Shown: positions 9,933 to 39,661 of the stretch, in pieces
Numbering within the stretch: position 1 is the first letter of the stretch
Layout of the letters: every line of letters begins with the position of its first letter
Virus record (IMG/VR): IMGVR_UViG_3300002641_000714
Direction: 5' to 3' (one strand)
From: a virus
Lineage: Duplodnaviria; Heunggongvirae; Uroviricota; Caudoviricetes
Length of the DNA stretch: 64,000 nt
Position numbers and translations under genes: made by a program
The notes under the pieces: generated by a model
Database searches by the model: none
What the model saw: the letters and a program-made list of their open reading frames with translations, nothing else
Told to the model about the DNA's origin: nothing

Positions 9933-9994
9933 TATTTTAATTTAACAATACAAAATTAATACCTTATAATTAAACTAAAAAATAGAAGCTTTAA

Positions 9995-10696: not shown

Positions 10697-10701
10697 AACT
10701 A

Positions 10702-11262
10702 CTAATTAAACTCTTTTATTATTTCTTCTCGGCTTTTAAACTCATCTGTATTTTCTTTATTAACATAAATTATATGTTTATTTCTTAATAAAGAATGATC
10801 ATATGCAGTTTTGAATAATTCTAATTCTTTTTTAATTAAATCAATATCTGCATTTGATAAAGATTTATTATCATCATTTTTTCTAAGTAATTCCGGTGAT
10901 GTTGATAATAATTGAATATATAAAATATCATCTTGCGGAATTTTCTCTAAAATATGTTTTTCAATAAGCTTTATTGTTTCAAGAATTTGTTCAGGATTTT
11001 CATCTCTATAAAGTTGTCCATAAACATATTCTCCAATATAATACCGATTATATATCAATATATTATTATCATTGTTTATATAATCTTTTATTGCAATATC
11101 AGCTAATGATTTATAATTAATAAATTGGTGATATAATACATTTTGTTTAACTTTTGGTTTACTACAATGAATAACCTTTACAATTTCGTTATTTTCTAAA
11201 ATATTATTAATAAGTGTATTCTTACCGGTATTATCCGGTCCATCAATAATAATTACCTTCAT
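10702..11262 (-). CDS. dNMP kinase (T4 gp1-like)
   Basis: The P-loop IIIDGPDNTGKNTL has the unusual GxxxxGK(D/N)T form of T4 gp1 (GVKRSGKDT). Adjacent to the hydroxymethylase. Ends TAG TAG, then 2 codons and a TAA overlapping the next ATG. Confidence 0.6.
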   Translation of the reverse strand: MKVIIIDGPDNTGKNTLINNILENNEIVKVIHCSKPKVKQNVLYHQFINYKSLADIAIKDYINNDNNILIYNRYYIGEYVYGQLYRDENPEQILETIKLIEKHILEKIPQDDILYIQLLSTSPELLRKNDDNKSLSNADIDLIKKELELFKTAYDHSLLRNKHIIYVNKENTDEFKSREEIIKEFN

Positions 11263-11695: not shown

Positions 11696-11847
11696 ATATC
11701 TTTTAAATTATTTTTTATTATTTAATTATTATAAATCTTTATAAAATAATGTTTCAAATTTTACAGTAAAAATGAGTAAAATTTTTCATTTTGCCCATTT
11801 TCTTTTTAATTAAAAATAAATATATTACAAAATAATACATAGTAAAA

Positions 11848-15760: not shown

Positions 15761-15811
15761 TTTTAATTACGATGCAAAATTAATACTTTTTTCTTAAATT
15801 AAAAAATAGAA
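15761..15811 (-). promoter_or_regulatory. Conserved early/middle promoter-like motif
   Basis: ttttaattacgatgcaaaattaatacttttttcttaaattaaaaaatagaa. Confidence 0.55.
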
Positions 15812-15824
15812 ATTAAAAATAAAA

Positions 15825-15840
15825 GGTGGAATTACCCACC
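15825..15840 (-). terminator. Terminator hairpin after the RNA-ligase gene
   Basis: On the minus strand GGGTGG-gtaatt-CCACC is followed by TTTTATTTTT. Confidence 0.55.
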
Positions 15841-15846
15841 CTTCAT

Positions 15847-17529
15847 TCAATTTTCTTCAGAAGAATCGTCCGTGTATCGTTCTTGCATTTCAATATCATT
15901 AGAACGTCCTTTATCAATATCTTCTGCTTCTTTTCCGAGGAACTTCAAGCACTTAAGTTTAAATGCCTCTGCCATTGGATCATCATTGATTCGAAGAACA
16001 ATGCCTTCACGTGGAAGTTTATTTTTACACAATGGTTCATCCATTTCCATACAGAATTTCTTATCAGATTTCATTGCATTCAAAACATTTTCATGCCAAT
16101 GATTTTTAATATCAATTTCAGGATACAAATTCTTCATATCTCCATTATACAAAATTGGAATAGGAACAATTTGATCTGCATAATGAGTTCCGTGCATATT
16201 ATCAAGCTCTTTAAGAGTAAAAATAAGTGCTCGCTCAGTATAATCGTGAACATCTTGAACATTGAACTCAAATACTTGTCCATCTTCCATTACTCGTTTG
16301 ATACGATAAATCATAAGTTTATTCTCACCAGGTTTGCAACCATAATCGTAAACTTTACCTCCAAGAGATTGAATACCAGAAGTACTGTCAGGAAGATAGC
16401 CTACAATTTCACCATATAAAGTCATTCCTTGCGGAATAATACCTTTAAGGATATCATAGTATTGCTTCCATACATCAACTCCATAAAAACCGTCTTTTTT
16501 AGATTGAATAGGATTTTTAAACAAGTCTTTAATTTTATCCCAGAAAGTTTTAGGTGTTCCGTCTTCATTCAATACACGTTTGTTTTTCTTAAACAATGAA
16601 CGCAGTGTACGTGTAATATGATTATACCAAGTATAAATGTATTGATATACAGCTGCAAGCATATTTTGATTTTTAATTACACTACGAGAACTATAAATTA
16701 CATCATAATCTTCAGTAGTAAATTGCAAGAACTTTGGCAAATATACAAATAGTTTTGAATATAACCCTCTATATTTCGGCTTATGAACTTTTACATTACC
16801 AAAAATTGCTGATGTTCCATGAAGCTTTACTGAAATTGCAACTGAAGTTTCAGGCTGCAATCTTCCAATCTCACGTTGAAGTTGTTGAGTATCATAGTGG
16901 AATGCAAATTGTCCAGGAATCATACGATCATATTTTTTAATTTGTTTTTCATGACGTCCAACTCGATTTCCACGTTTCTCTTCTTTAACTTCAGGAACAT
17001 ATGCCTTTACGAACAAATCACCATTAATGGTATCAAAATCTTCACCAATATGTTGAGACCAATCAAAATGCTCAATAAGAAAAGTCTCATTGTAGGTACT
17101 CATTTGATCAGGTGAAATAAGATATCCCATAGACATAACGCCCTTAATTCGCTTCATACGAACACGACATTTCTTATCAAAGTATCCACGATTAGCTGCA
17201 ATATATGATTTAATATCATCTTCAGATACCCTGTCTGCTTTCATTTGCTCTACATGTTTTTGAATTTCAGAATAATTTGCATTAAGTTCCTCATCCTGAA
17301 ACTCATTGTTATAATGCAAAAAAAGTTGATCAAGCTGGCACTCATTAGATACATAAATCATAATATCGCCCTCTTTAACGCGATCTTTACGAACTACAAT
17401 TTCTCGACCTTCAACCATTACAGTGGCGAGAAAATCAGTTCCTTCAATTGGAGTCAATTCACCCAATTGAACAACAGTGGCACAATACTCATGTGACATG
17501 TCTTTAGATTGTGATAGTAAATTTCTCAT
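15847..17529 (-). CDS. Putative RNA ligase (Rnl2-like nucleotidyltransferase)
   Basis: Motif I VKLHGTSAIFGNV (T4 Rnl2 has KIHGTN), an EGIVLR motif-IV-like element, and an N-terminal extension. TGA stop. Confidence 0.5.
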   Translation of the reverse strand: MRNLLSQSKDMSHEYCATVVQLGELTPIEGTDFLATVMVEGREIVVRKDRVKEGDIMIYVSNECQLDQLFLHYNNEFQDEELNANYSEIQKHVEQMKADRVSEDDIKSYIAANRGYFDKKCRVRMKRIKGVMSMGYLISPDQMSTYNETFLIEHFDWSQHIGEDFDTINGDLFVKAYVPEVKEEKRGNRVGRHEKQIKKYDRMIPGQFAFHYDTQQLQREIGRLQPETSVAISVKLHGTSAIFGNVKVHKPKYRGLYSKLFVYLPKFLQFTTEDYDVIYSSRSVIKNQNMLAAVYQYIYTWYNHITRTLRSLFKKNKRVLNEDGTPKTFWDKIKDLFKNPIQSKKDGFYGVDVWKQYYDILKGIIPQGMTLYGEIVGYLPDSTSGIQSLGGKVYDYGCKPGENKLMIYRIKRVMEDGQVFEFNVQDVHDYTERALIFTLKELDNMHGTHYADQIVPIPILYNGDMKNLYPEIDIKNHWHENVLNAMKSDKKFCMEMDEPLCKNKLPREGIVLRINDDPMAEAFKLKCLKFLGKEAEDIDKGRSNDIEMQERYTDDSSEEN

Positions 17530-17646
17530 AATTTTAAATGTTTTTAATTGTTAATTTTTATTTTCTCCGCCACCAGCGATATTTCTATCGCAATTTATTA
17601 TTATAATTATTATTTATATTTTGTTTCAATCGGTTTATTACATTCA

Positions 17647-17922
17647 TTAATCGACAACTCCTAAAATTTTAGTATTATTGCCATACCAAAACCTCATGCA
17701 AGCAGGCTTATCATAATCATCAAGATAAAATTTATAACTACGAATAATTACTTTTGTATCTTCTGGATATTCTGGTTCACAAAATAAATGTTCTTTTTCA
17801 TAATCAAAATCATAATCTTTGCCTTCTGTCAATGTTGATAATTTTTCATATACAAGAGACATTGGTTTAGTTTCGAATTCACAAAATTCCAAATATAAAT
17901 TATTATAATCAGTTAATGTCAT
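17647..17922 (-). CDS. Hypothetical protein
   Basis: 91-aa ORF with a TAA stop. Confidence 0.5.
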   Translation of the reverse strand: MTLTDYNNLYLEFCEFETKPMSLVYEKLSTLTEGKDYDFDYEKEHLFCEPEYPEDTKVIIRSYKFYLDDYDKPACMRFWYGNNTKILGVVD

Positions 17923-17950
17923 ATCTTATTTTCTCTTTTTATAATTATTA

Positions 17951-18259
17951 TTATGGTACTATTTTCCATTGATAACACCACCATTTGATATTGTATTTTT
18001 CTTTAAGCCAACTCCAATGATTTTCTACTGATTTAAGAGTTCCTATCTTTTTATTTGCAGTACAATAAATAATGGGTTCATTTTCTAATTCTGGAAAATA
18101 AACATCTGCATTTTTCCATTCTATTGTTAATATAAAATTATCTTCCATAATTTTACAATCAAAATATTTTATATCAGCTTTCGAACCGTTTTCAATATCA
18201 ATAGGTAACAACTCGGGTTGTCTTGTTGTCATTGCAATACCTTTTGTAATTGCTTCCAA
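17951..18259 (-). CDS. Hypothetical protein
   Basis: 102-aa ORF. The listed start is TTG, so the true start is uncertain. A degenerate copy of the early motif lies at 18341-18378. Confidence 0.45.
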   Translation of the reverse strand: MEAITKGIAMTTRQPELLPIDIENGSKADIKYFDCKIMEDNFILTIEWKNADVYFPELENEPIIYCTANKKIGTLKSVENHWSWLKEKYNIKWWCYQWKIVP

Positions 18260-18527
18260 TGCAGCTTTGTCTTCACTATGTAATCCGTCAAACCAATTCT
18301 TTATGTCAGGATTTTTACTTATATCCTCAACTGTTTTTATTTTTTAATTACAACGTAAAAATAATAAAAATGGAAGTTAATAATTTCTTTGTTTTCTTTC
18401 AGGTTTTAAACTAACATTAGTTTCAAATAATTCACAACTACAATTTTTTGATTTTTCGCAGTTATTAAATAAGTTGCATATTTTACAATACTGAGATTCC
18501 ATAATTAATTATTGTATTTTAATTTTA

Positions 18528-19109
18528 TTATTTACGTATTCTGAGCTCAGCAAAATCCCATATTTCTTTAATACATTTTTTATTAATGTATGATTCAGGA
18601 TCTAATCCTAATATTTCCTTTTCAGCTAAATCATTAAATACCTCTGTCAAAAAGTGTGCGGTATCTTTATGCATTTTTGCAATTTTCTTTTTGTTTTCCC
18701 ACCACTCAAATTCGCCTTTATATGTAAAATTGTTACCAAGATATGCTTTTGCCGCACCAATATAATCACAAACCATCTCAACTGCATATTTATAGGGCAT
18801 TTTTATGCAAACCGTGCCTTCATCATATCTATCTGTCCAATATTCATAATGATGAGGATTACGGCCTTTATGATGCTGCCATGCTAATGAATACCCTTTA
18901 TCTGCCTTACATACATTGATTGGCGAACTTGTTCCTTGATAATATCTTACAGATTCCCAAAATTCAACCCATGAAAATTTAGACAAATCGTGAGTAATAC
19001 CTTGCCAATACAATCCAGCCTTAAAGCAATAATATGCTACCCAGAATTTATGTACACAAATTTTCTTAAAATGCGCTAATGTATTTTTTAATGTAATTTT
19101 ATGCTTCAT
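18528..19109 (-). CDS. Hypothetical protein (His-rich motifs HHKGRNPHHYEYW)
   Basis: 193-aa ORF with a TAA stop. Confidence 0.55.
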   Translation of the reverse strand: MKHKITLKNTLAHFKKICVHKFWVAYYCFKAGLYWQGITHDLSKFSWVEFWESVRYYQGTSSPINVCKADKGYSLAWQHHKGRNPHHYEYWTDRYDEGTVCIKMPYKYAVEMVCDYIGAAKAYLGNNFTYKGEFEWWENKKKIAKMHKDTAHFLTEVFNDLAEKEILGLDPESYINKKCIKEIWDFAELRIRK

Positions 19110-19114
19110 AATTT

Positions 19115-19336
19115 TTATTTATTAGGCCCTGTAATTTTCATATAGCTTTTTTCTTCTTTTAACTTTTTTTCAAGCCATGTAGCATAATCAGTCCACCAAA
19201 CATTAAGAGTTGTAGTTTTTCCACCAATAACAATAGTATAACCGACCTCTTCACCCTCTGCACATGGTATAAATGTAACATCACCGATAGGATGAATATT
19301 CATTTCTTGTTCAAGATATTCAACAATATATTTCAT
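19115..19336 (-). CDS. Hypothetical protein
   Basis: 73-aa ORF with a TAA stop. Confidence 0.5.
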   Translation of the reverse strand: MKYIVEYLEQEMNIHPIGDVTFIPCAEGEEVGYTIVIGGKTTTLNVWWTDYATWLEKKLKEEKSYMKITGPNK

Positions 19337-19353
19337 AACTTTATTAAATTATT

Positions 19354-19473
19354 TTAACCCAAAAATAAGCCCACAATTACACCTAATATTGCTCCAATTG
19401 CTCCGCAACCTAAAATATATAGAATTGCCAATACCCACACAGGGAATTCAAATTCAAATTTTACCTTTTTCAT
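19354..19473 (-). CDS. Small membrane protein (39 aa)
   Basis: MKKVKFEFEFPVWVLAILYILGCGAIGAILGVIVGLFLG. Its ATG overlaps the stop of the upstream gene (ATGA). Confidence 0.35.
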   Translation of the reverse strand: MKKVKFEFEFPVWVLAILYILGCGAIGAILGVIVGLFLG

Positions 19474-19730
19474 AATCCATGTACTTTAATATGCATATTC
19501 AAACATTTTTCTATTCCGGATTCATATAATTGATTTTGATTTCCATATTCATTTTTCCCATTAATTTCCAAAATGATTCTATATAAAATATATCCATCCT
19601 GTTTAACTTCATCCCATACATAATCAGAATCAACTAAATAATCATAACCACAAATAGAACCTTTATGAGTTTCATATTTATTAGAGATAATATCTCCCCT
19701 TTTCAGCGTTTTAAATTCTTCTTTTGTCAT
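19470..19730 (-). CDS. Hypothetical protein
   Basis: 86-aa ORF with a TGA stop. Confidence 0.5.
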   Translation of the reverse strand: MTKEEFKTLKRGDIISNKYETHKGSICGYDYLVDSDYVWDEVKQDGYILYRIILEINGKNEYGNQNQLYESGIEKCLNMHIKVHGL

Positions 19731-19884
19731 GGTTTAATCATCATTTGAACGTTGTGTACCAAAATAATTTAATTTTTCTTTAAATTTTTGATTCCAATTA
19801 ATAGACATATCAAATTTACTGTTTATTATTTCATTAAGAATTTCTTTAAATGCAAACTCTGCATCAATTTGTTCTACTTTCATA

Positions 19885-21873
19885 TTAATTGAATTTTTGA
19901 AGTTTGTTTAAAATTTGTTTATATGCCAATGCATCATTAGATGTAATAGGACGTTTAACCTTATTTTTAAGTTTCCACCATTTAATGGTTTCTTTAATAA
20001 GCTCGTCACTTACATTAGGAACTTGTCCCTTTAATAATAGTATAAAAGATTCCTCTTGTTTCATTTCTTCCAATAATTGTTTATGAACATTTTCCAACAT
20101 TGGCATAATGCTTAGATAATCTGCGCGATTAATTCGATTATTAAGATAATATTCTACAGTTTCAATATCTAATGCATCATAATTAAGAACTTCACGCGCA
20201 TCAGTATAAACCTTAAATGATATACGGTTTTTTCTATCTGGATCATAATGCCATGTTTTATCTGGCATATATTTAATTACAAAATCACCATGAGAATTTT
20301 TCTCGATTGTATATAAACCGGTTTCTGGAACATTCGGAAGCCCCCATGTGTCATCTTTATCACGGTTCCAAGAATAATATCTTTCATCAAAACGATCTTG
20401 AACACCCATTACATAATTTTGTAAAAATAATATGCGAGAACCAACTTTAATGTCTTTATTAATTTCTGTTACGAAATGCCAATAATCAGGATGCCCATCA
20501 CTAACACGTTTATATTCGGCATCATACACAAATTCAACATATGGAGATTCTAATCCTTCTTTGAATAGGTTAACCGGATTATGCGGAGCCAAAACATCTG
20601 AACGATCAAGCAAACCCTGAAGTAAACAGAAATTAAATTTATATCTGTCTATAAAATCTTCAATTTGTTCTTGTTTATTTTTTCTTATATAGTGTATGCC
20701 TTCCTTCTCCAATTCATCTACAAGTTTTTGAAGCTCATCTTGCTTTGGAAACAAATATGGATGGATAATTAAATCTGCCCAAATTCGATATACGTTATCG
20801 CCATTTCTAACAATAATATATGTTTTTACATCATTCTCGTCTAATTCATTTATTAAATATGGATTATAAACATAATGATGCCCATATTTAATTTCACCAC
20901 CTTGTTTTCCATTTCTGCGAACACGGAATACGCGAACACCTTTCTTAGATACAAATAAATCAAGGTGGTTATTTCTGAGAAGCCATTCGTCAAATTGCTC
21001 AATTTTTGTAAAATCAAGACCACCATCTTTCCAATCACCAACCTCTTCATCCATATAAAGAACCTCTTGGAAGAATTGAATAGGTTCATCAATCGGTGCA
21101 GGCGTACCTTCTTGAATTTGAATAACATCTTCATTGACACCTGTATACAATTCAAGCTGACCAAGAACCCTGCGAATACGTGTCAACTTACGTTCAACAA
21201 CCATTATTGCATCTCTATATTTACGTTGTATTGCTTCAACTTTTTCACGTTGTTCAGCGATACACATTTTAACAATAGCGAGCTTTCGATCCATTTCCTC
21301 TTTAAGAGCAAGTGTGGTATTTTGCGCATTTAAATATGTTTGTTTTGATGCAGATATACTAACAAGTGCTGTACTTTCCTCGTTGGTGTCGTCATCACTT
21401 ATATTATCTGTTTGTAAAAACTCATCATCTTTACCATTAATTGCATCCATACCGCAATTTACATATGCAACTAATTCCTCTTTATTTTTAAAAACCAAAT
21501 AATTTCTTCCATAATCTGTGCCATTAATTGACAATGCTCTAACTTCGGTTCTTTCAGGATTATATCCACCAAAACCAACTTCATATTCTTTATCTATAAA
21601 TGGATCAAATCCTACAACCTTTACATTAAGGTGATATGTATCTAATTCAATTTCTTTACGTTCACCATTTTCAAATTCTAATTTGATGTCTTTTTCCGGT
21701 TCAATAGATACAATACGATAACAACGTGGATCATGCCAAGACATATCAACAATATAATTACCCGGCTGAATATCCTTCTGCCAGTCTTTTGGATGAGTTT
21801 CAAGAGCATTTGCAATCTGTGCATCTCTTGTAACTAATTCTTTACTTTGATATTTTTCAATATTGTTATCCAT
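19885..21873 (-). CDS. Large hypothetical protein (662 aa)
   Basis: Uninterrupted ORF with a TAA stop. No recognisable motif. Confidence 0.6.
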   Translation of the reverse strand: MDNNIEKYQSKELVTRDAQIANALETHPKDWQKDIQPGNYIVDMSWHDPRCYRIVSIEPEKDIKLEFENGERKEIELDTYHLNVKVVGFDPFIDKEYEVGFGGYNPERTEVRALSINGTDYGRNYLVFKNKEELVAYVNCGMDAINGKDDEFLQTDNISDDDTNEESTALVSISASKQTYLNAQNTTLALKEEMDRKLAIVKMCIAEQREKVEAIQRKYRDAIMVVERKLTRIRRVLGQLELYTGVNEDVIQIQEGTPAPIDEPIQFFQEVLYMDEEVGDWKDGGLDFTKIEQFDEWLLRNNHLDLFVSKKGVRVFRVRRNGKQGGEIKYGHHYVYNPYLINELDENDVKTYIIVRNGDNVYRIWADLIIHPYLFPKQDELQKLVDELEKEGIHYIRKNKQEQIEDFIDRYKFNFCLLQGLLDRSDVLAPHNPVNLFKEGLESPYVEFVYDAEYKRVSDGHPDYWHFVTEINKDIKVGSRILFLQNYVMGVQDRFDERYYSWNRDKDDTWGLPNVPETGLYTIEKNSHGDFVIKYMPDKTWHYDPDRKNRISFKVYTDAREVLNYDALDIETVEYYLNNRINRADYLSIMPMLENVHKQLLEEMKQEESFILLLKGQVPNVSDELIKETIKWWKLKNKVKRPITSNDALAYKQILNKLQKFN

Positions 21874-21886
21874 AAAATTATTTTAT

Positions 21887-21938
21887 TTTTAATTTCGATG
21901 CAAATTTAATACATTTTTCTTAAATTAAAAAATAGAAG
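21887..21938 (-). promoter_or_regulatory. Conserved early/middle promoter-like motif
   Basis: ttttaatttcgatgcaaatttaatacatttttcttaaattaaaaaatagaag. Confidence 0.55.
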
Positions 21939-21939
21939 C

Positions 21940-23046
21940 TTAATTAGTTTCCATTAAATATGCTTTAATAAATTCATCAATATTTCCATTCATAACAGAA
22001 TCTACATCAGAAGTTTGATAATTTGTTCGATGATCTTTTACACGTTTATCATCAAAAACATAACTTCTAATTTGTGCGCCCCAGCCAATTGGCATCTTTT
22101 TATTTTCTATTTCTGCTTGAACTTGACGACGTTTTTCAAGCTCTAATTCATATAATTGGCTGCGCAAATGTTGCATTGCAATTTCTCTGTTTTTCGGTTG
22201 GTCTCTTGATTCTGTACTTTCTGCTACCAATTCATCTTCCTGTCCGGTTAACGGATTAATAAACTTATAATGAAGTCTTACCCCAGATTCAACTTTATTT
22301 ACATTCTGCCCGCCTGCGCCAGAAGATCTAAATGTATCCATTGTAATATTTGCAGGATTAATATTAACTTCAATAGAGTCATCTACTAATGGACATACAA
22401 ATACACTTGCAAAACTTGTCATACGTTTTCCTTGTGCATTATATGGACTTACCCGCACTAATCTGTGTATACCTGTTTCTCCTTTAAGATGGCCATATGC
22501 AAAATCTCCATATACATTAAATGAAACAGTTTTAATTCCTGCAGTATCGCCTTTTTGATAGTTTGTTATTTCTCCTGTAAAATTGTGATTTGCAAAATAA
22601 GATAGATACATTCGCATTAACATTTCGGCCCAATCTTGTGCTTCAGTTCCACCTGCTCCAGCCACAATTTTTAAAACTGCAGGCATTTTATCCTCATCAT
22701 TATTTAGCATTGTTTGCATTTCATATTTAGAAATCGTTTCTAAACATGTATTATATAATGATTTGGACTCCTCTTGAGACAATTCTTCATCAGATAACAA
22801 TTCTAAATAAGTAATGTTATCATCAGTTAAATTAATATCATATAGCAAGTTAGATAAATTTTTCCAATCTTTCGAAATTTTTTCTGCCATTTTTGCATCA
22901 TTCCAAAAAGCTGGATCATGCATTCGCATATTCAACTCATTTTCTTGATTCTTTTTATCTTCAAAATGGATACAATTTTTTAAATATTCAAATCGCTTTC
23001 GAAGTTCTTTAACATTAATATTTGAATTTAACATTTTCATTCCCAT
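21940..23046 (-). CDS. prfB: Class-I peptide chain release factor, RF2-like
   Basis: Has the GGQ motif (SSGAGGQNVNKVESGVRL). The tripeptide anticodon region reads RLVRVSPYNAQGKRMTSF (SPF-like SPY, not the PxT of RF1). Continuous ORF with no +1 frameshift site. Confidence 0.8.
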   Translation of the reverse strand: MGMKMLNSNINVKELRKRFEYLKNCIHFEDKKNQENELNMRMHDPAFWNDAKMAEKISKDWKNLSNLLYDINLTDDNITYLELLSDEELSQEESKSLYNTCLETISKYEMQTMLNNDEDKMPAVLKIVAGAGGTEAQDWAEMLMRMYLSYFANHNFTGEITNYQKGDTAGIKTVSFNVYGDFAYGHLKGETGIHRLVRVSPYNAQGKRMTSFASVFVCPLVDDSIEVNINPANITMDTFRSSGAGGQNVNKVESGVRLHYKFINPLTGQEDELVAESTESRDQPKNREIAMQHLRSQLYELELEKRRQVQAEIENKKMPIGWGAQIRSYVFDDKRVKDHRTNYQTSDVDSVMNGNIDEFIKAYLMETN

Positions 23047-23339
23047 ATATCATTTTCTTCAACCCAATCTATTTTAACATTCGGACGTTCATTACTATTT
23101 ACACAATATTTCATATAATATTCATAATCAGAATGAACACCAAGTGATTTTATTTCTTCATCATTTGTCCAATCAATATCCTCTATAAGTCCATACATTA
23201 TAGTAATACGATTCTGCATATTTATGTAATTTATCCCAACAATATGTCCTGAATAATTACTATATTTTTGTGCTAATGGTTCCCAAATACGATAATTAAC
23301 ATGTTGGTTAAAATCATATTTATTATCTATTTGTATCAT
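23037..23339 (-). CDS. Hypothetical protein
   Basis: 100-aa ORF with a TGA stop. Confidence 0.5.
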   Translation of the reverse strand: MIQIDNKYDFNQHVNYRIWEPLAQKYSNYSGHIVGINYINMQNRITIMYGLIEDIDWTNDEEIKSLGVHSDYEYYMKYCVNSNERPNVKIDWVEENDIWE

Positions 23340-23350
23340 TTTATTTAATT

Positions 23351-23728
23351 TTATTTTTTATAGTTGTAAATATTTTCTTGCAAATATGCATTTAACAAAC
23401 ATTTAAAATGTGTTAATGCATTTTTATCTGCAATATTATTTTCTAAATGTTTAAAAAATTTGCAATTTAACTTTTCAATAAATGCATCCCTATAATAATG
23501 CCTAACATTTTTTGGAAGGCAATTATAATATATACCAGTTTCATGAATAATTCTAGAAAATACATTAATAAACCAATATTGCATATTATCATCTCCATTA
23601 GTAATAATATCTTCACAAACATCTACAATATTTTGTAAACCATTATGCTTTTCAGGAATTAGTGAATGCAGTTGATTAAATAATGATTGCATTGTTTTTT
23701 CACTGTAATGTTTAATATTTGTTTTCAT
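23351..23728 (-). CDS. Hypothetical protein
   Basis: 125-aa ORF with a TAA stop. Confidence 0.5.
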   Translation of the reverse strand: MKTNIKHYSEKTMQSLFNQLHSLIPEKHNGLQNIVDVCEDIITNGDDNMQYWFINVFSRIIHETGIYYNCLPKNVRHYYRDAFIEKLNCKFFKHLENNIADKNALTHFKCLLNAYLQENIYNYKK

Positions 23729-24123
23729 TTTTCTGTTGGATTTGTTTTAAAATAATTATCAAATTTTTCCTGTTCCCACCAATTGATATTATCAATTAGA
23801 CTTTTAATAGATTTTTCCATTGCTTTATAACTTCTAAATGGTTTTCTACTTCGTAACCAAAATAAATATGATGGATGTTTATCACTTCCATCTACAAGAA
23901 TTTCCCATTTTCCATCACTATAATTTCGATTTATACATCTAAAAAGTTTACCAAGCCTAATAAAATCATTACAAAAGAAAAATATCATATATCTTTCTTT
24001 TAAATGTCCGCAACAGCTTTCCAAAGTTTCAATACCATCTAAAGAATTAAGTTTTTCACATAATTCAATACATTCCTTATCCATATCTTCAATAGGAAGA
24101 TCTATCTTTTTTCCATTAATCAT
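23725..24123 (-). CDS. Hypothetical protein
   Basis: 132-aa ORF with a TGA stop. Confidence 0.5.
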   Translation of the reverse strand: MINGKKIDLPIEDMDKECIELCEKLNSLDGIETLESCCGHLKERYMIFFFCNDFIRLGKLFRCINRNYSDGKWEILVDGSDKHPSYLFWLRSRKPFRSYKAMEKSIKSLIDNINWWEQEKFDNYFKTNPTEK

Positions 24124-24125
24124 AA

Positions 24126-24593
24126 TTAATTGTAATTTTTTATAAAATATGTTGAATATACCGGGTATGGTTCCCCAAGCATTGCATTCATATAATCAAA
24201 TCTTCTATGATTCATTTCTGCTTCTTTCTTAAGATAATCAGTATAAGATATTTCTGGATGAATTTTGTTCCATTCTTCAATAAACTTATTATGAGAATCT
24301 TGATAAATCTTCGGAACTTGGATAGGTTCAAAGTATTTCCCATTAATTAACTTAATGAGATCTCTGAATTTATCAGTGAATTTGTATTTTTCATAAAATT
24401 CACCAGCCTTATCAACAAACTGTGCATATAAATCGGCAATGGTAATAATCTCTCGTAAATCATTTGTTCGTTTAATACCCATATCGCCAGTATAACTAAT
24501 ACCCCAAGTATCAATTAGCCAAATAACCTCAAAATCCTCACCAAATTGTATGGCAAGTTGACGAATTTCTTTAAGCATTTTGTTGTACGTCAT
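24126..24593 (-). CDS. Hypothetical protein
   Basis: 155-aa ORF with a TAA stop. Confidence 0.5.
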   Translation of the reverse strand: MTYNKMLKEIRQLAIQFGEDFEVIWLIDTWGISYTGDMGIKRTNDLREIITIADLYAQFVDKAGEFYEKYKFTDKFRDLIKLINGKYFEPIQVPKIYQDSHNKFIEEWNKIHPEISYTDYLKKEAEMNHRRFDYMNAMLGEPYPVYSTYFIKNYN

Positions 24594-24596
24594 AAT

Positions 24597-24893
24597 TTAC
24601 AATGTTTTAGTTAATACTCCATATTTTTCTGTTATAAGATTTCCATTTTTATCAATGGTTCCAGTTTTTTCTAAATCTCCACAATCTTCAATCAAGTTAT
24701 GTTTTTCATCAAACCACTGATTTGGTTTAATTTCATAGTTATTTAATTTTTTTATTTCTATATGCAAACATGCAGGATCATTTAAAAACCTCAATACTTG
24801 TTTTAATACTTCTAATTTCCCGTAAAGCACTCTTTTCATACTAGCATGATATGAGTGTAATTCCTGATAGTAATATTCATTTTCTTGTTTCAT
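24597..24893 (-). CDS. Hypothetical protein
   Basis: 98-aa ORF with a TAA stop. Confidence 0.5.
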   Translation of the reverse strand: MKQENEYYYQELHSYHASMKRVLYGKLEVLKQVLRFLNDPACLHIEIKKLNNYEIKPNQWFDEKHNLIEDCGDLEKTGTIDKNGNLITEKYGVLTKTL

Positions 24894-25471
24894 ATCTCAT
24901 TATTAAAATACCGCATTCTATTAAAATTAAAATAACCAATTATATTACTATGATTAATTACATCATTATTTAATATACCTATCCATTCATTTAATGGAAC
25001 ATTATTTACTAAAAAATTATGTAATTGTAAACTAAAGTATCTTCCATATTGGTTAATATCAATATCAATATCATCATAATCTGATTGTGCAAATGTTATT
25101 CCGTGTTGGTCTGCTTCACTTTCATTTGAAATAAACATTCCAGTAAAAAACCCATGCAAATGATGTGTTTCGGCAAAATCTGCTGCATAACACCATGAAC
25201 CAATAACATTCCGTGCATGAATTAAATGCACATTATTTTCATGAATAATGTATTGTCCTGAATTCAAATTTGGATGAAGTAATCCTTGTGTGGTTCCATG
25301 TCCACACATAATTAATGTATCATTTTCTGACATAATGGCCGCATCAACAATATCCTCATAATCTTCTGTGTCATGAGTTATTTCAATAATTCGATCAGGA
25401 TTCAAACCCTCCCATATTAATTGAAGAAGTTGAGTATCTTGATCGCCAAAATTTGAATAAATTATAGTCAT
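24890..25471 (-). CDS. Hypothetical protein (MCGHGT motif)
   Basis: 193-aa ORF with a TGA stop. Confidence 0.5.
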   Translation of the reverse strand: MTIIYSNFGDQDTQLLQLIWEGLNPDRIIEITHDTEDYEDIVDAAIMSENDTLIMCGHGTTQGLLHPNLNSGQYIIHENNVHLIHARNVIGSWCYAADFAETHHLHGFFTGMFISNESEADQHGITFAQSDYDDIDIDINQYGRYFSLQLHNFLVNNVPLNEWIGILNNDVINHSNIIGYFNFNRMRYFNNEI

Positions 25472-26109
25472 TTTTCTTCATTAGTTTCATTAAACATCGG
25501 AACTTTTGCTAATCTTTCTATCAACTCGTCTGGAATATCATGCCAGTCAAGCCAATCCCATTTTGCAATATAAAATACTGCACCATTTTCTGTCGGTTTC
25601 CAATATTCGTCAAAAATCCCATTCCAAACTTTACTGCGTTGTTTCCATTGTTGCCATGATAAATCTAGGTCAGGATCTCCAGAATCACCATACCAATAAT
25701 CATCAACAATAGTCATTATCAAATCTCTATTTTCTTGACAATGATCACATCCAAAATAATTTCCATATAAATTTCCATGATATGGATATATCATTACTTG
25801 TAATGAATAGTCTAAATCACCATTTAACCGAGCTTCATCATCTTTACGACTGCCTAAATACCGAATAATTTCAAACTTTGCTTTTAAAAGGTTTTGTTCA
25901 GACGGATCATTTTTATATGCAATAATATCTTCTTTAAGGTATTGATTCATTTTATGGTCAAGTCCCACAAGAAGACCGATATAATTACCATGCAACAATG
26001 AATTGGCCATATTTTTTAAGGCCTGCTTTCTAATAGATTTCAAAGAATCTACTGCCTTTTCAAAACTCTTTGTTCGGAATTTAATTCCTGTATATACATT
26101 AAAACTCAT
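25468..26109 (-). CDS. Hypothetical protein
   Basis: 213-aa ORF with a TGA stop. Confidence 0.5.
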   Translation of the reverse strand: MSFNVYTGIKFRTKSFEKAVDSLKSIRKQALKNMANSLLHGNYIGLLVGLDHKMNQYLKEDIIAYKNDPSEQNLLKAKFEIIRYLGSRKDDEARLNGDLDYSLQVMIYPYHGNLYGNYFGCDHCQENRDLIMTIVDDYWYGDSGDPDLDLSWQQWKQRSKVWNGIFDEYWKPTENGAVFYIAKWDWLDWHDIPDELIERLAKVPMFNETNEEK

Positions 26110-26124
26110 AATATACTATATTTT

Positions 26125-26400
26125 TTATTTTCTACAAATAAATTTAAAAATTTTTTCTTTACGTTCTTGACTTTTTCTATATTGTTCAGCACGTTCTTTA
26201 TTAATTTTATTATGTTTTTCAATTAATCTTTTTCTTTCCTCATCACTACAATGTATAGTTATTTTTCCAATAGGGCCACAATATTTCCAGCCTTGAATTT
26301 TATATTCTTCTTCATACCATATATGATCTTTAATAGTAGCAATACATAAAATAACAAAAGCTATAAATCCAAGTATTGCTATTAATTTTTGTATTATCAT
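26125..26400 (-). CDS. Small membrane protein
   Basis: N-terminal TM helix IIQKLIAILGFIAFVILCIATI. TAA stop. Confidence 0.5.
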   Translation of the reverse strand: MIIQKLIAILGFIAFVILCIATIKDHIWYEEEYKIQGWKYCGPIGKITIHCSDEERKRLIEKHNKINKERAEQYRKSQERKEKIFKFICRK

Positions 26401-26417
26401 ATTTTATAATTTTTTAT

Positions 26418-26468
26418 AATTTTTATGTTGCAAAAATAATACTTTTTATTTAAATTAAAAAATAGAAG
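26418..26468 (-). promoter_or_regulatory. Conserved early/middle promoter-like motif (variant)
   Basis: ttttatgttgcaaaaataatactttttatttaaattaaaaaatagaag. Confidence 0.5.
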
Positions 26469-26556
26469 TTTATTATTTTAATTATTATAATTTAAAATGG
26501 GAAAATGTTTCACAACATCTTCCCACCCAATATATAATTAAAAATAATATCATTTT

Positions 26557-27723
26557 TCACTTTTTGATATTCAAATCATGAAAACATTGTTGAATTTCTG
26601 TTTCATCTCCCATTACCTTTCCGGCATCATCGCTCACTTTAATGCAATGAACCCATGGACTATTTGCATTCATTCTGCATTGCATTAATTTCATTACAAT
26701 ATTCTGGCTTGGCGTATTCGTATCACATGTAAGGTTTGTTCCAATGCCAGCTGAACATTTAATTTTGCCTTTACAATAATCAGCAATCTCTTTATATTTC
26801 GGAAATGTCAATGCATTTGAAAATACAATAGTTTTATCTTTAGGATCAATTCCCTTAGCTTTGTATGCATCAATTACCATCTGTGTATATTCATATTCAT
26901 CTCCCGAATCATGACGAACACCATCAAATAATTTTGCATGTTTCATTGTAAATGTATCAAAGAATGCTTTAGAACCATATGTATCAGTTAATGCAATTCC
27001 AAGATTTCCATCATAAACAGAAACCCAGTCTTCATATGATTTATAATTCGCATTTCGATAACCAAATTGTGCTGCATGGAACATAATCCATTCATGTGCG
27101 ACAGTTCCAATAGGTTTCATACCATACTTCATTGCAAGATGAACATTGGATGTTCCTACACAATAAAGCGCATTTTCTTTAAGACGTTTTACTACAGCAT
27201 CTTGAACATTATAGCTAAAACGGCGGCGGGTACCAAACTCACTAAATACCAAGCTATACTCATTTGACAATGCAATCTTTGCATCAAGCCGTTTCAACAT
27301 ATCTGCCATATTAATTATATGAACACGATTTGATACTTCGGAAACAATAGCAAGACATGCAATTTCCCAAAAAGTCAGACGATATAATTTATCGGTTGCC
27401 TCGATATGAAGAATTTTATTATCATCAAGATATACCTTAACTTTACTTGCATCAAATCTAAAACCGCGAAGCCACTCCCAGTAAAATTCAGGAATATAAG
27501 GAATATGTTTTACGCACCAATTAAACTCATCTTCTGTTAAATACAAATCCTCAAGTTTTTTAATTTCATTAAGGATTTGTTCTACGTCAGATTGTGTCCG
27601 TTTAACTCGATTACGATCACAAAACTCAAATACTCCTTCAGCTTCAGGATAAAGCTTCATATATGCATAACTCATACTGAGTTTATACAAATCTGTATCT
27701 AAAATACTTTTAATTACTCCCAT
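26557..27723 (-). CDS. pncB: Nicotinate phosphoribosyltransferase
   Basis: ILDTDLYKLSM, FSEFGTRRRFS, GTSNVHLAMKYGMKPIGTVAHEW, LGIALTDTYG, RHDSGD and SAGIGTNLTCD all match E. coli PncB blocks. Confidence 0.85.
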   Translation of the reverse strand: MGVIKSILDTDLYKLSMSYAYMKLYPEAEGVFEFCDRNRVKRTQSDVEQILNEIKKLEDLYLTEDEFNWCVKHIPYIPEFYWEWLRGFRFDASKVKVYLDDNKILHIEATDKLYRLTFWEIACLAIVSEVSNRVHIINMADMLKRLDAKIALSNEYSLVFSEFGTRRRFSYNVQDAVVKRLKENALYCVGTSNVHLAMKYGMKPIGTVAHEWIMFHAAQFGYRNANYKSYEDWVSVYDGNLGIALTDTYGSKAFFDTFTMKHAKLFDGVRHDSGDEYEYTQMVIDAYKAKGIDPKDKTIVFSNALTFPKYKEIADYCKGKIKCSAGIGTNLTCDTNTPSQNIVMKLMQCRMNANSPWVHCIKVSDDAGKVMGDETEIQQCFHDLNIKK

Positions 27724-27731
27724 AAATCACT

Positions 27732-28415
27732 TTATTTAAATTGTTTTTCTTTTAATGCATTCAATTCATTTTCAACTTTTTTAAGTTGTATTTTTGCATT
27801 CTCAGCTTTACGTATAATTTTATTTAACTGCTTTATTTTATGTGTTAATTCACTAACACGATATTCATATATTTCAGTTTTTATTTTATTAATATACTTA
27901 TCAAACTCATCAAGTTTGTATCCAACAACCTGCATATTTACATTAATGCCCAAATCACATGAATGATCCAATACAATATCTTGAAAATACTTGAATTCCA
28001 TCCGTTCTATATAATCACTACCATATAGCCATTTATTTCCAAAATATTTTTCAGTATAATAATAGCCAACAAAAATTGGTTCTGTGCATTCAACATTTAT
28101 AAATTTATATGTTGTGTGCAATTTGTCAGCTTCATTATTGCTATTTTTATATATTGACCATATATCACTTGTTAGATTATTCTTAATAATATCTGCTGAA
28201 ATACCAGTAACAAGACTTACATATTTGCAAAATGCATTTACGTCATTTTCTCGTTCTTTAATATATAAATCTATATGTTTTTTACCACTAATAATAAATC
28301 CATGTCCACAAACAGGAGGCATGTAGTTATATATAAACTCTTTAATATATGGACATAAATCTTTTGGAGAAAATGCCGCAAAATTTTTAGGATCGACTTC
28401 AATTAAATTTTCCAT
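27732..28415 (-). CDS. Hypothetical protein with a C-terminal coiled coil
   Basis: 227-aa ORF with a TAA stop. Confidence 0.55.
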   Translation of the reverse strand: MENLIEVDPKNFAAFSPKDLCPYIKEFIYNYMPPVCGHGFIISGKKHIDLYIKERENDVNAFCKYVSLVTGISADIIKNNLTSDIWSIYKNSNNEADKLHTTYKFINVECTEPIFVGYYYTEKYFGNKWLYGSDYIERMEFKYFQDIVLDHSCDLGINVNMQVVGYKLDEFDKYINKIKTEIYEYRVSELTHKIKQLNKIIRKAENAKIQLKKVENELNALKEKQFK

Positions 28416-28458
28416 TATTAACTTTAATTTTTAAAATTTATAATGTTTACTAATGTTT

Positions 28459-28719
28459 TTAAATTAAACCAATATGAGTACCACAAACCAAACAATCCCT
28501 ACTATACCATCCGCAACCTGTTGGTGTATCAATAAAAATATGAAATTTACATTCGCCATTTTTATTATAATATTCCAAAGCTTCTTCAACTTCTTTTTGT
28601 GTTGCCTCACGTACAGTAGAACCGCCACATTGGCAATGCACATACGTATCATTTTCAGAACACCGCGCTGAAATAATTTGTTTAGTTCTATTTGATATTT
28701 CTACAAATCCTTTTAACAT
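28459..28719 (-). CDS. Small Cys-rich protein
   Basis: 86 aa with multiple Cys pairs (CQCGG, CLVCG). TAA stop. Confidence 0.45.
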   Translation of the reverse strand: MLKGFVEISNRTKQIISARCSENDTYVHCQCGGSTVREATQKEVEEALEYYNKNGECKFHIFIDTPTGCGWYSRDCLVCGTHIGLI

Positions 28720-28742
28720 AATATTAATTTTTACTTAAAAAT

Positions 28743-29018
28743 CTACACATAAATGACTTTGTATATTGTATGCCAAGTTTTTCTTCGTGTCAATACATAA
28801 TATTTACGACGTTCTTTAACATAATAACAATCCTTAATATAATGTGCATCACCATCATTAATAACAGTGGTTTTTCCATTAACCCGAATCATTTCACCTG
28901 GCAATGGCACACGAGTTGCATATGTATGCCACTTTAGCTCTTTGTTAAAAAACTTTGCAATTTCTTTTGCAGTCATTACATACTTTGTAATTTTTACAGG
29001 AATAACTTCATAACCCAT
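28743..29018 (-). CDS. Hypothetical protein
   Basis: Internal start MGYEVIP avoids overlap with the cca gene. The stop is TAG, with 3 further codons to a TAA. Confidence 0.4.
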   Translation of the reverse strand: MGYEVIPVKITKYVMTAKEIAKFFNKELKWHTYATRVPLPGEMIRVNGKTTVINDGDAHYIKDCYYVKERRKYYVLTRRKTWHTIYKVIYV

Positions 29019-29022
29019 ACTT

Positions 29023-30480
29023 TTAAAATTTATAATGTTCATCAATATACTTATATAATGCATCTGGTGTATTCTCAACAATATTATCAAGAACTGCATC
29101 TTTAATAAGTTGTTTAATTTCACCGACTTGCCGACTTGGTGTCAAATGATAACGAATCATAATATCATCTCCAGATACACATGGTTGGAACAATCGCACA
29201 TAATCTTTTTGCTTAAGATCTTCAATACGTTGTTTCAATTCATCATATTGTTTCCAGAAATTTTTCTTCTTCTCTTCATGTTTCGTTGTAATATCGGCTT
29301 TTGCCAAAATTAACAACTCATCAATATAACCATTTGCATCATGAACAAGACGACGTACAGCAGCATCAGTTACACCCTCATCACAAATTGCTTGAGGCCT
29401 CATATGCATACGAACCATAGTCTCTACAAAGTCCATATTTTCATCCAGAGGCATCTTCATGCGGCTGAATATAGATTTTATCATCTTAGCTCCTACATAT
29501 TCGTGGTTGTCAAAAGACCAGCCTTTATGAGCATTCCAAGATCTGGTTTTCATTTTACCAATATCATGAAATAATGCGGCAATACGAAGCCATACATTAT
29601 CAGACTGTTTAGTAACATTGTCAAGTACATGCAAAGTATGCCAGAAAATATTTTTGTGGCCACGTACATACTCAGATACAGTTGAAGCTCTGGTAGTATC
29701 CATTTCTACCAATTCTGGTAAAAACTTTTTAAGTAAACCAAAATTTTTCAGAATTTCAATTCCGTCTTTTGCATGATTAGATGCCATGATTTTCATAAAC
29801 TCTGTAGTAATTCGCTCAGCAGAAATAATATCAAGACGATCTACATTTCGTATAATTCCATCTTGAGTTTTCTGATCAATTCCGAAATCAAGCTTGCACA
29901 TAAAACGAACAGCCCGAAGCATACGTAGTGGGTCATCACTGAATGTAGTATCAGGATCTACAGGAGTCCGAATAATTTTATTCTTCAGATCTTCAATTCC
30001 GTTAAACGGATCAACCAACTCACCAAAATGTTCAGCATTAAGTTGAATAGCCATAGCATTAATTGTAAAATCACGGCGAAGCTGATCATCTTCAAGAGTT
30101 CCATCCTCTACAATAGGTTTACGAGAACCACGTTCATATGATTCTTTACGAGCACCGACAAATTCTACTTCCCAATTTCCAAAATGAACCTGGGCTGTAC
30201 CAAAGTTTTCAAATATTGATAATTTAATATTGTCAAAATTTGATTCCCTTTTCAAATATTCTGTAAAAGCCTCTGCAATTTTCTGTCCCTTTCCGACTAC
30301 CACAACGTCAATATCATCATTGGGCCTGCCAAGAATTAAATCACGAACATAACCGCCGACAACATAACATGGATATTGTAAAGTGTCAGCAACCTTCTGA
30401 ATATTGCAAAGAACTCCAAAAATATCTGGAGTTTTTTGAATTTCTTTTAGAATTGTATTTTTATCAAATTGTGTTAACAT
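29023..30480 (-). CDS. cca: CCA-adding tRNA nucleotidyltransferase with an HD domain
   Basis: GGYVRDLILGRPNDDIDVVV and RRDFTINAMA (class-II nucleotidyltransferase head) plus HD-domain motifs HTLHVLD and HDIGK. Confidence 0.8.
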   Translation of the reverse strand: MLTQFDKNTILKEIQKTPDIFGVLCNIQKVADTLQYPCYVVGGYVRDLILGRPNDDIDVVVVGKGQKIAEAFTEYLKRESNFDNIKLSIFENFGTAQVHFGNWEVEFVGARKESYERGSRKPIVEDGTLEDDQLRRDFTINAMAIQLNAEHFGELVDPFNGIEDLKNKIIRTPVDPDTTFSDDPLRMLRAVRFMCKLDFGIDQKTQDGIIRNVDRLDIISAERITTEFMKIMASNHAKDGIEILKNFGLLKKFLPELVEMDTTRASTVSEYVRGHKNIFWHTLHVLDNVTKQSDNVWLRIAALFHDIGKMKTRSWNAHKGWSFDNHEYVGAKMIKSIFSRMKMPLDENMDFVETMVRMHMRPQAICDEGVTDAAVRRLVHDANGYIDELLILAKADITTKHEEKKKNFWKQYDELKQRIEDLKQKDYVRLFQPCVSGDDIMIRYHLTPSRQVGEIKQLIKDAVLDNIVENTPDALYKYIDEHYKF

Positions 30481-30776: not shown

Positions 30777-30829
30777 TTTTTAAATTCGATGCAAAATTAA
30801 TACTTTTTTCTTAAATTAAAAAATAGAAG
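30777..30829 (-). promoter_or_regulatory. Conserved early/middle promoter-like motif
   Basis: ttttaaattcgatgcaaaattaatacttttttcttaaattaaaaaatagaag. Confidence 0.55.
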
Positions 30830-31453: not shown

Positions 31454-31505
31454 TTTTAATTACGATGCAAAATTAATACTTTTTATTTAAATTAAAAAAT
31501 AGAAG
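31454..31505 (-). promoter_or_regulatory. Conserved early/middle promoter-like motif
   Basis: ttttaattacgatgcaaaattaatactttttatttaaattaaaaaatagaag. Confidence 0.55.
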
Positions 31506-31570
31506 TTAATAAAATATCAAAAAACACTACCTAAAATTAGGTAGTGTTATATTATCTATTAATTATTTCA

Positions 31571-32418: not shown

Positions 32419-33081
32419 TTAAATAATATTAATTTGACATGATTTCATTACTTCAAGTGCAGCTTTGTGTTTTTCTGGAGTAACTCCAGCACAACATTTG
32501 CTATCCACTGTAATCTCTGCAAAATTATATGTATATGCTTTAAGAATAAGTGCATTAGAAACTACACAAATATCTGTACAGAATCCACACATTTCAATTT
32601 CCATTGGAATATAATTAATATGCCCATTATTTTTAATAATATGATTAATAAATCCATTGTTTTTAATATGTTGAAATGTTCGGTCTTTTTCAAAATTTAA
32701 AACGGTGTCTTTAAGAGTTGATGCAATTTCACCATCTTCAATATAAACTGGATCAACAGAACCAAATGTATTTTTACGAATATATTTAATTTCACATCCT
32801 TGTTTAGCTTTTACTAAGACTGCTTGATAAATAGATTCTTCAATTCGCCACCCTTCACTATTGACCATACAATGTTCAACCGGAAGTTTTTTACCTTCTG
32901 ATGTATCAAGATAATCAAAATAATGAGTGTCCATTGTTAGATAAATTGCATCACCATCAAATGATAAAATTTTGTCAACAATATTTAGAACTGCTTTTTG
33001 AGCATCTTTATTTGCTAATGTGCCAGTAATAAAATCATTCTGTGCATCAACTACTACTAAAACTTTAATCTTATTTTCCAT
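32419..33081 (-). CDS. pncA: Nicotinamidase (isochorismatase family)
   Basis: VLVVVDAQNDFITG and HCMVNSEGWRI match E. coli PncA (LLLVDLQNDF, HCVQNSEGAQL). Catalytic-Cys block IEMCGFCTDICV. Confidence 0.8.
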   Translation of the reverse strand: MENKIKVLVVVDAQNDFITGTLANKDAQKAVLNIVDKILSFDGDAIYLTMDTHYFDYLDTSEGKKLPVEHCMVNSEGWRIEESIYQAVLVKAKQGCEIKYIRKNTFGSVDPVYIEDGEIASTLKDTVLNFEKDRTFQHIKNNGFINHIIKNNGHINYIPMEIEMCGFCTDICVVSNALILKAYTYNFAEITVDSKCCAGVTPEKHKAALEVMKSCQINII

Positions 33082-36495: not shown

Positions 36496-36548
36496 TTTTT
36501 AATTACGATGCAAAATTAATAAAATTATTTCAAACTAAAAAATAGAAG
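36496..36548 (-). promoter_or_regulatory. Conserved early/middle promoter-like motif
   Basis: ttttaattacgatgcaaaattaataaaattatttcaaactaaaaaatagaag. Confidence 0.5.
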
Positions 36549-39551: not shown

Positions 39552-39661
39552 GTTTTATTGATATTTTGTTGATTAACATTCTTTCTTTTATTATTTATTA
39601 AAGAATTAAAAATAAAAATTTTATTTTTTAATAATATATAAAATTTAATAAATATATTGAT

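Follow-up and report, generated by a model that had tools for sequence, protein, structure and literature searches.

The Locus and the Source Phage

The stretch of DNA analysed here (the window, 64,000 nucleotides of the Caudoviricetes record IMGVR_UViG_3300002641_000714) carries on its minus strand, between positions 15847 and 30480, genes for an ATP-dependent RNA ligase, a release factor 2 (RF2) and a tRNA nucleotidyltransferase of the CCA-adding type. A prediction made from the sequence alone had read them as an early module in which an Rnl2-type ligase and a full CCA-adding enzyme answer tRNA-cleaving host defences, and in which tRNA maintenance is linked to a recoded programme of translation. 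The three open reading frames (ORFs) lie exactly where that prediction had placed them:

15847–17529, minus strand: predicted Rnl5-type ATP-dependent RNA ligase of a PHA02142-like subfamily, 560 amino acids (domain and motif searches)
21940–23046, minus strand: RF2 (prfB), 368 amino acids, with PCRF and RF-1 domains (TIGR00020)
29023–30480, minus strand: tRNA nucleotidyltransferase of class II, CCA-adding type, 485 amino acids, ending in an HDIG phosphohydrolase domain (Pfam, NCBIfam, PHROGs)

The genome may be some 0.5 Mb long; the window represents 64 kb of it, with a G+C content that ranges from 23 to 34%. At the DNA level the sole matches among phages are two short stretches, about 72% identical, in the Prevotella phages Lak-A2 and Lak-C1; close relatives (65–97% protein identity) are known only as metagenome contigs, one of which is 491 kb long. 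When the whole window is re-read with TAG as a sense codon, many fragments merge into long ORFs, such as the following:

3910–5304, plus strand: ORF joined across 11 in-frame TAGs
41355–42569, plus strand: ORF joined across 5 in-frame TAGs
57977–60028, minus strand: ORF joined across 6 in-frame TAGs

Re-reading TGA mainly lengthens frames that overlap minus-strand genes, with several in-frame TGAs in each. The source is therefore a Lak-like, TAG-recoded megaphage of Bacteroidales. The minus-strand run from 13071 to 39551 is nearly devoid of in-frame TAG, and the ligase, RF2 and CCA enzyme genes have none and are thus written in the standard code. Lak genomes are known to encode RF2 and a CTA suppressor tRNA (PMC6784885), and it has been published that the genes that bring about the code change in recoded phages are kept in the standard code, the idea being that they are expressed first.

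The RNA Ligase

The ligase matches PHROG 968, “RNA ligase” (9e-39), and consists of an N-terminal OB domain (residues 1 to about 180) followed by a nucleotidyltransferase domain. Its motif I, KLHGTS, is encoded at 16810–16827 and contains K235; E374 marks motif III, E508 motif IV, and K524/K526 motif V. In an alignment of 56 homologues, K235, H237, G238, E374, G377, E508, G509, K524 and K526 are invariant, and the family profile places K235 on the nucleophile of NgrRnl, K170, and the segment REGIVLR...FKLKCLKF on NgrRnl E312 and K324/K326 (E508 on E312, K526 on K326). The original prediction had staked the ligase on its lysine nucleophile and motifs III–V; all of these are present and invariant, and the enzyme therefore looks active.

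The family assignment, in contrast, had to be changed. The defining architecture of Rnl5 is an N-terminal OB domain with nothing appended after the nucleotidyltransferase domain (PMC1807946; PMC5397189). In the phage protein, Pfam detects the PHA02142 N-terminal OB domain alone, upstream of the adenylyltransferase region with its full set of motifs, and K526 is followed by just 34 residues, which a predicted model folds into two short helices and no appended domain. The sole NCBIfam match is the DraRnl model TIGR02306 (RNA_lig_DRB0094), which reaches 22.7 bits against a cut-off of 151 and aligns only around motif I. Because the OB domain is N-terminal, the only NCBIfam match is to DraRnl, and no domain follows motif V, the ligase is, on its domain architecture, of the Rnl5 type rather than the Rnl2 type; because TIGR02306 scores so far under its cut-off, it represents a divergent, enlarged Rnl5 subfamily and not a DraRnl equivalog. 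Motif I itself does match the Rnl2-type form, KxHGxN (KLHGTS, with H237 invariant). The corresponding motif of T4 Rnl2 is KIHGTN. Membership of the Rnl2 family, to which T4 Rnl2 and trypanosome REL1 belong, is nevertheless rejected on domain architecture, as the C-terminal domain required for Rnl2 nick sealing is absent.

Enzymes of the Rnl5 family seal nicks in duplex RNA (PMC5397189) and do not carry out the joining of single-stranded anticodon-loop ends that is typical of Rnl1; phage homologues have been on record since 2007 (PMC1807946). The subfamily found here is widespread in phages, with 377 records, mainly from mycobacteriophages and Gordonia phages, that are annotated “RNA ligase”. 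The Lak homologues are about 30% identical to the window protein.

The CCA-Adding Enzyme

The nucleotidyltransferase has the HD domain that the prediction had given it, for which the HDIG model scores above its cut-off, as well as a PolyA_pol head (PF01743) and the RNA-binding domain PF12627. The motifs GGxVRD, DxD, RRDFTINA and DDPLRxLRAxRF are conserved, at a level of at least 98% across about 120 homologues, and the HD residues, H..HD..H..D, are conserved too. Over 93–95% of its length the protein is 55–64% identical to Prevotella and Prevotellaceae proteins that are named CCA tRNA nucleotidyltransferase by NCBI. The proven CCA enzyme of M. tuberculosis has the same three-domain architecture, and its HD domain acts as a phosphatase on 3′ ends that are damaged (PMC10673834); by analogy, the HD domain of the phage enzyme could clear 3′ cyclic phosphates.

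Because of the identity to the Prevotella proteins, the conserved motifs and the architecture of proven enzymes, the reading as a full CCA-adding enzyme is favoured, and the gene looks like a separate capture from a Bacteroidales host. That the protein might add A only, or act as a poly(A) polymerase marking RNAs for decay, is hardly credible, even though it falls below every curated equivalog cut-off for CCA-adding, A-adding and PcnB enzymes (the best being TIGR02692, 340 against 438.8) and its closest solved structure is the Aquifex A-adding enzyme (4wby, 1vfg; 9e-39). The Thermotoga CCA enzyme follows just behind and is almost tied, so these matches cannot settle nucleotide specificity. The resemblance to the Prevotella enzymes speaks against this alternative, as does the head, RNA-binding and HDIG architecture, which is that of CCA enzymes proven in M. 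tuberculosis and E. coli and is lacking in the E. coli poly(A) polymerase (PMC10673834).

An observation in Lak-A2 concerns the substrates of such an enzyme. About 860 nt upstream of RF2 in that genome lies a tRNA-Leu(UAA) gene (L006 23298–23384, at about 286.3 kb of the Lak-A2 record), in which the discriminator is followed by CAA and not CCA; this tRNA, with no encoded CCA, would therefore need a CCA-adding enzyme.

Release Factor 2

The RF2 homologue of the prediction is borne out by the prfB model TIGR00020, which it matches with 417 bits (cut-off 370); for the RF1 models the scores are 207–231, under their own cut-offs. RF2 is encoded by a single ORF without a programmed frameshift. The GGQ motif is invariant, and in every one of the 16 RF2 sequences aligned, from phages and Bacteroidales, SPY (residues 200–202) occupies the position of SPF. 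The idea that SPY marks altered codon recognition peculiar to the phage was rejected, every aligned Bacteroidales RF2 having the same residues; SPY is presumably the functional equivalent of SPF, and we infer from its family that this factor terminates at UAA and UGA but not at UAG.

RF2 is already published for Lak-type phages (PMC6784885). The window protein shares 60–65% identity with RF2 from Bacteroidales, Paludibacteraceae included, and only 49% with that of Lak-A2, which points to capture from a Bacteroidales host.

Promoter-Like Motifs, Transcription Units and Gene Order

In a 43-nt motif, CTTCTATTTTTTAATTTAAnnAAAAnGTATTAATTTTGCATCG, the −7 box of Bacteroidetes, TAnnTTTG, lies about 33 nt ahead of the next ATG. 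The motif occurs in six copies, where none would be expected by chance, all on the minus strand and always upstream of TAG-free minus-strand genes. These copies, three weaker occurrences of the core and two terminator-like hairpins are located as follows:

31523–31548, minus strand: terminator-like hairpin, the upstream boundary of the block
31463–31505, minus strand: copy of the 43-nt motif
30787–30829, minus strand: perfect copy, upstream of a gene for a 79-amino-acid protein and the CCA enzyme gene
26426–26468, minus strand: copy heading a run of nine genes that ends in RF2
21896–21938, minus strand: copy between RF2 and a gene for a 662-amino-acid protein, heading the unit that ends with the ligase
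15817–15848, minus strand: terminator-like hairpin with a 14-bp stem and a T run, directly after the ligase stop codon
15518–15560 and 15770–15812, minus strand: two copies downstream of the ligase gene
8333–8345, 9949–9961 and 36509–36521: weaker cores of the motif

A scan with the sigma-70 consensus gave no enrichment (143 sites against 141 expected). Because copies of the motif head each of them and the hairpins bound the block, the CCA enzyme, RF2 and ligase genes are predicted to belong to three successive units with one type of promoter and not to a single operon. The motif is kept in three of the relatives (L001–L003), with a copy in the equivalent slot. Gene order is conserved as well: the relatives share the succession PncA-CCA-PncB-...-RF2-66x aa-...-DUF5662-...-ligase at 45–83% identity.

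A second motif, AAATAAATATATTG, has 8 copies against 1.0 expected and lies just upstream of genes most of which contain TAG; the TAG-containing ones include those at 11848, 39662, 48620, 49251 and 62540. Copies of it lie at these positions:

11814–11827, 39646–39659, 48580–48593, 49217–49230, 51920–51933 and 62461–62474, plus strand
59983–59996, minus strand

The motif is reminiscent of the T4 late box, TATAAATA, and may be a late-class promoter. The two classes of motif, judged by the genes they precede, fit the published idea that standard-code genes for the code change are expressed first. Most members of a family of paralogues that start on the plus strand at 11848, 48620, 49251, 49791 and 51957, and share the N-terminus K(K)ALYESIMTSVAKEVKK, are preceded by AAATAAATATATTG.

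Neighbouring Genes and Differences among Relatives

Several of the genes in and around the three units could be given a name or a conserved position:

18528–19109, minus strand: DUF5662 protein, in the unit of the ligase (Pfam, 2e-32)
19885–21873, minus strand: conserved 662-amino-acid protein, opening the unit that the ligase gene closes (synteny)
26557–27723, minus strand: PncB nicotinate phosphoribosyltransferase, last gene of the CCA enzyme’s unit (Pfam; NF003704, 419 against 379; TIGR01514, 383 against 270)
32419–33081, minus strand: PncA-like nicotinamidase of the isochorismatase family, just upstream of the block (domain scan; in relatives, found in synteny with the CCA and PncB genes)

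In DUF5662, an alignment of 58 sequences has invariant H20, H40-D41, K44, E49, H80, N84, H86-H87 and E111, a set of potential metal ligands like that of HD domains. An hhalign comparison with the HD domain gave a weak match to the H..HD motif (probability 18%), the DUF5662 profile found no match among PDB sequences, and a single-sequence AF2 model was unusable (pLDDT 48). In other proteins, DUF5662 homologues are joined to further domains, namely HAD_SAK_2 (of “Swiss army knife” RNA repair proteins), 2-thiouracil desulfurase, a cytidylyltransferase-like domain and PLP-decarboxylase; the neighbourhood of the gene is the same in relative L004. The 662-amino-acid protein, for which no match was found in Pfam, PHROGs, NCBIfam or PDB sequences, is about 69% identical in the same slot of all relatives. 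PncB and the PncA-like nicotinamidase form an NAD salvage pair that directly flanks the CCA gene in relatives, and the pair may act against NAD-depleting defences. A gene for a Band 7 protein also lies just upstream of the block.

The relatives differ from the window in part of their gene content. Immediately upstream of RF2 some of them encode a minimal PF09414 RNA ligase of 225 amino acids (KLDG, EGVVFK, KVKTKWW; L002 9159–9836, L004 1640–2317), which is shortened to 174 amino acids in L001 and L003, and they carry a 136-amino-acid cREC_REC protein (L001 7329–7739), cREC being predicted to act as a cyclic phosphoesterase and having a link to RNA ligases (PMC7824862). Both genes were sought in the window and are absent from it. 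In L004, radical SAM, DNA methylase and TnpB genes are inserted and there is no RF2 in that slot. In this 491-kb relative the TnpB gene (IS605 OrfB/TnpB, Cas12f-like, L004 8314–9525) is an insertion immediately upstream of the ligase gene.

Further features of the window lie outside the block. A gp23-like major capsid gene is located at 36633–38201 on the minus strand, possibly extending to 38552 through one TAG; it belongs to the same nearly TAG-free run as the three genes and has no copy of the 43-nt motif. Another family of paralogues, these containing TAG, occupies 39662–43501 on the plus strand and 57210–60028 on the minus strand, with the common N-terminus MKNYKQILEAxNRGIKFALDDF and long NWNVSNV-type repeats in two members. 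Minus-strand ORFs at 43537–45084, 45268–45744 and 45605–46839 include one for a family B DNA polymerase, which matches its Pfam model in part only, and, immediately upstream of it, one for an HNH endonuclease with 3 in-frame TAGs; a mobile element may therefore have split the polymerase gene.

A Gene Set for the Maintenance of Translation?

We consider it about an even bet (probability roughly 0.5) that the three units form a co-regulated gene set that maintains the translation apparatus, as distinct from a self-contained repair operon of the T4 type. One unit would supply the host-derived CCA-adding enzyme with its HD phosphohydrolase domain, together with PncB; another would end in the host-derived RF2; and the last would end in the Rnl5-type nick-sealing ligase and then in a terminator. 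Host RNA polymerase would transcribe all three before, or independently of, the TAG-containing genes. RF2 would keep termination going at TAA and TGA while remaining blind to TAG, whose reading would fall to a suppressor tRNA with its gene in another part of the genome. The CCA enzyme would build or rebuild the 3′ ends of tRNAs, its HD domain removing a 2′,3′-cyclic phosphate or 3′-phosphate, and the ligase, through lysyl-AMP formed on K235 with ATP, would seal 3′-OH/5′-PO4 nicks in duplex RNA, for example in broken tRNA stems.

A number of results weigh against this reading. Within the 14.6 kb that the three genes span, about 20 others, mostly of unknown function, separate them, and the promoters are assigned from sequence motifs alone. 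The timing of expression cannot be read from the sequence either: the genes are TAG-free and share a common host-type promoter motif, yet the strand run that holds them also includes the capsid gene, and the “early” of the original prediction is therefore unproven. In Lak-A2, the 50 kb around RF2 are without the other genes of the block and the ligase is about 72 kb off; RF2 and ligase are 72–74 kb apart in Lak-A2 and Lak-C1. Since the genes are dispersed in Lak-A2, their clustering appears to be specific to the lineage of the window phage and not obligatory. Moreover, the physiological role of Rnl5 is uncharted, and the Deinococcus enzyme affects DNA repair (PMC5397189).

The search for a repair pathway weighs on the same side. 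T4 answers anticodon nucleases with Pnkp and Rnl1. ATP-dependent ligases require 5′-PO4 and 3′-OH ends, and in jumbo phages they are usually found alongside kinases and phosphoesterases (PMC7824862). Pfam scans of about 70 window proteins, with TAG read as Q where needed, found no polynucleotide kinase (PNK), HAD phosphatase, 2H, RtcB or Rnl1, nor any domain of an aminoacyl-tRNA synthetase; PHROGs, and tblastn of the 64-kb window with the T4-type PNK of Gordonia phage Bantam, likewise gave no PNK. The window’s only small P-loop protein (10690–11262) was considered as a PNK and rejected, as it is a thymidylate kinase adjoining a thymidylate-synthase homologue. ARAGORN and Rfam found no tRNA, suppressor tRNA or other Rfam RNA in the 64 kb. 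The two companions that the prediction had proposed to look for, a polynucleotide kinase-phosphatase and a cluster of tRNA genes, are thus both missing from the window, and a role in RNA repair is plausible but incomplete on this evidence.

Competing Explanations

The pairing of ligase and CCA enzyme had been presented as the classic phage answer to anticodon nucleases. Spelled out in full, this would make the two a dedicated counter-defence against tRNA-cleaving host nucleases, protecting the suppressor tRNA as well, with the 5′-kinase and 3′-phosphatase encoded elsewhere in the genome of some 0.5 Mb. Some support comes from actinophages: in Bantam, genes for a Pol-beta nucleotidyltransferase and a T4-type polynucleotide kinase are found no more than 6 kb from a homologue of the ligase. 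The cREC_REC gene and the second, minimal PF09414 ligase in the same region of the relatives point in this direction, as do the DUF5662 protein of the ligase unit, with its HD-like ligands and its fusions elsewhere to HAD_SAK_2, and an HD domain in the CCA enzyme that could heal 3′ ends. However, neither the cREC gene nor the small ligase is present in the window phage, PNK, 2H, RtcB and Rnl1 were not found in the window, and the two genes belong to different units. We know of no anticodon nuclease in the host of this phage that could be the target. In addition, Rnl5 enzymes seal nicks in duplexes and not the single-stranded ends of a cleaved anticodon loop (PMC1807946). We therefore regard a dedicated counter-defence as distinctly unlikely. 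A still bolder construction, in which the 43-nt promoter governs a standard-code “translation take-over regulon”, is a speculation that we consider very doubtful; it would combine the RF2 code switch with kinase-independent tRNA repair (the CCA enzyme’s HD domain and DUF5662 healing 3′ ends, the CCA activity rebuilding them and Rnl5 resealing) and with NAD salvage by PncA and PncB, and would shield the suppressor tRNA and translation from tRNA-targeting and NAD-depleting defences.

At the other extreme, the three genes may have no functional link, the region being a variable island of independently acquired accessory genes under a common class of promoter. RF2 would then serve the code change, the CCA enzyme would only mature phage tRNAs, PncA and PncB would salvage NAD, and the ligase would take part in replication or repair, acting on 3′-ribonucleotide nicks in DNA or in RNA-DNA hybrids. 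The gene content of the region does differ between relatives (small ligase, cREC, radical SAM, DNA methylase, TnpB), the genes are dispersed in Lak-A2 and Lak-C1, the ligase and CCA homologues of Desulfovibrio phage 7757 are 57 kb apart, and RF2 and the CCA enzyme each resemble a separate capture from the host. As for the ligase, DraRnl tolerates DNA in the 5′-PO4 and template strands, and its loss slows the reassembly of the genome (PMC5397189). Against this, the units have the 43-nt motif in common and gene order is conserved within the lineage, and three of the functions that can be identified act on tRNA or translation. An island without a functional link is, on balance, a somewhat unlikely explanation, and a co-regulated set for the maintenance of translation is the reading that we prefer. 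The proposed tie between tRNA maintenance and recoding survives in part: RF2 fits a TAG-recoded programme and shares its promoter-like motif with the other two genes, while the link itself remains a matter of interpretation.

RNA ligases and CCA enzymes are already known to recur in large phages (PMC7824862), and each kind of gene found here is known. If the three genes do cooperate, they would be a case of a recoded phage guarding the tRNA pool that its altered code relies on, and the Rnl5 family, whose physiological role is uncharted, would gain a testable substrate. For annotation, the family of the ligase is corrected, and RF2 and the CCA enzyme would be recognised as captures from Bacteroidales hosts. 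Finally, two promoter-like classes that separate TAG-free from TAG-containing genes make a programme of “standard code first, recoded later” testable by transcript mapping.

Comparison with Known Systems

Like the T4 pathway in which Pnkp and Rnl1 counter PrrC, the window phage has an ATP-dependent RNA ligase that could reseal broken tRNA; it differs in having neither Pnkp nor an Rnl1-type ligase in the window, and its ligase would belong to a nick-sealing clade. Like the Lak and Agate phages, with their RF2, and the Jade phages, whose “code change module” consists of suppressor tRNA, TrpRS and RF1, it has a release factor that fits the remaining stop codons and is encoded by a standard-code gene; unlike the Jade module, no suppressor tRNA or aminoacyl-tRNA synthetase lies beside RF2 in the window. 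The nucleotidyltransferase has the same head, RNA-binding and HDIG architecture and the same motifs as E. coli Cca, M. tuberculosis Rv3907c, Prevotella Cca and the CCA enzymes of jumbo phages, whereas, compared with bacterial class II CCA enzymes, it is phage-encoded and scores under the curated equivalog cut-offs, its specificity being predicted only. The ligase, too, departs from its prototypes: at 560 amino acids, against about 340 for the Rnl5 prototypes, it has a helical insert within the OB domain (residues 65 to 125, approximately), a lineage-specific insert of 50 amino acids (residues 295–344) that is confined to its closest relatives, and a motif I of the form KxHG, with the histidine of Rnl2, in place of KxDG.

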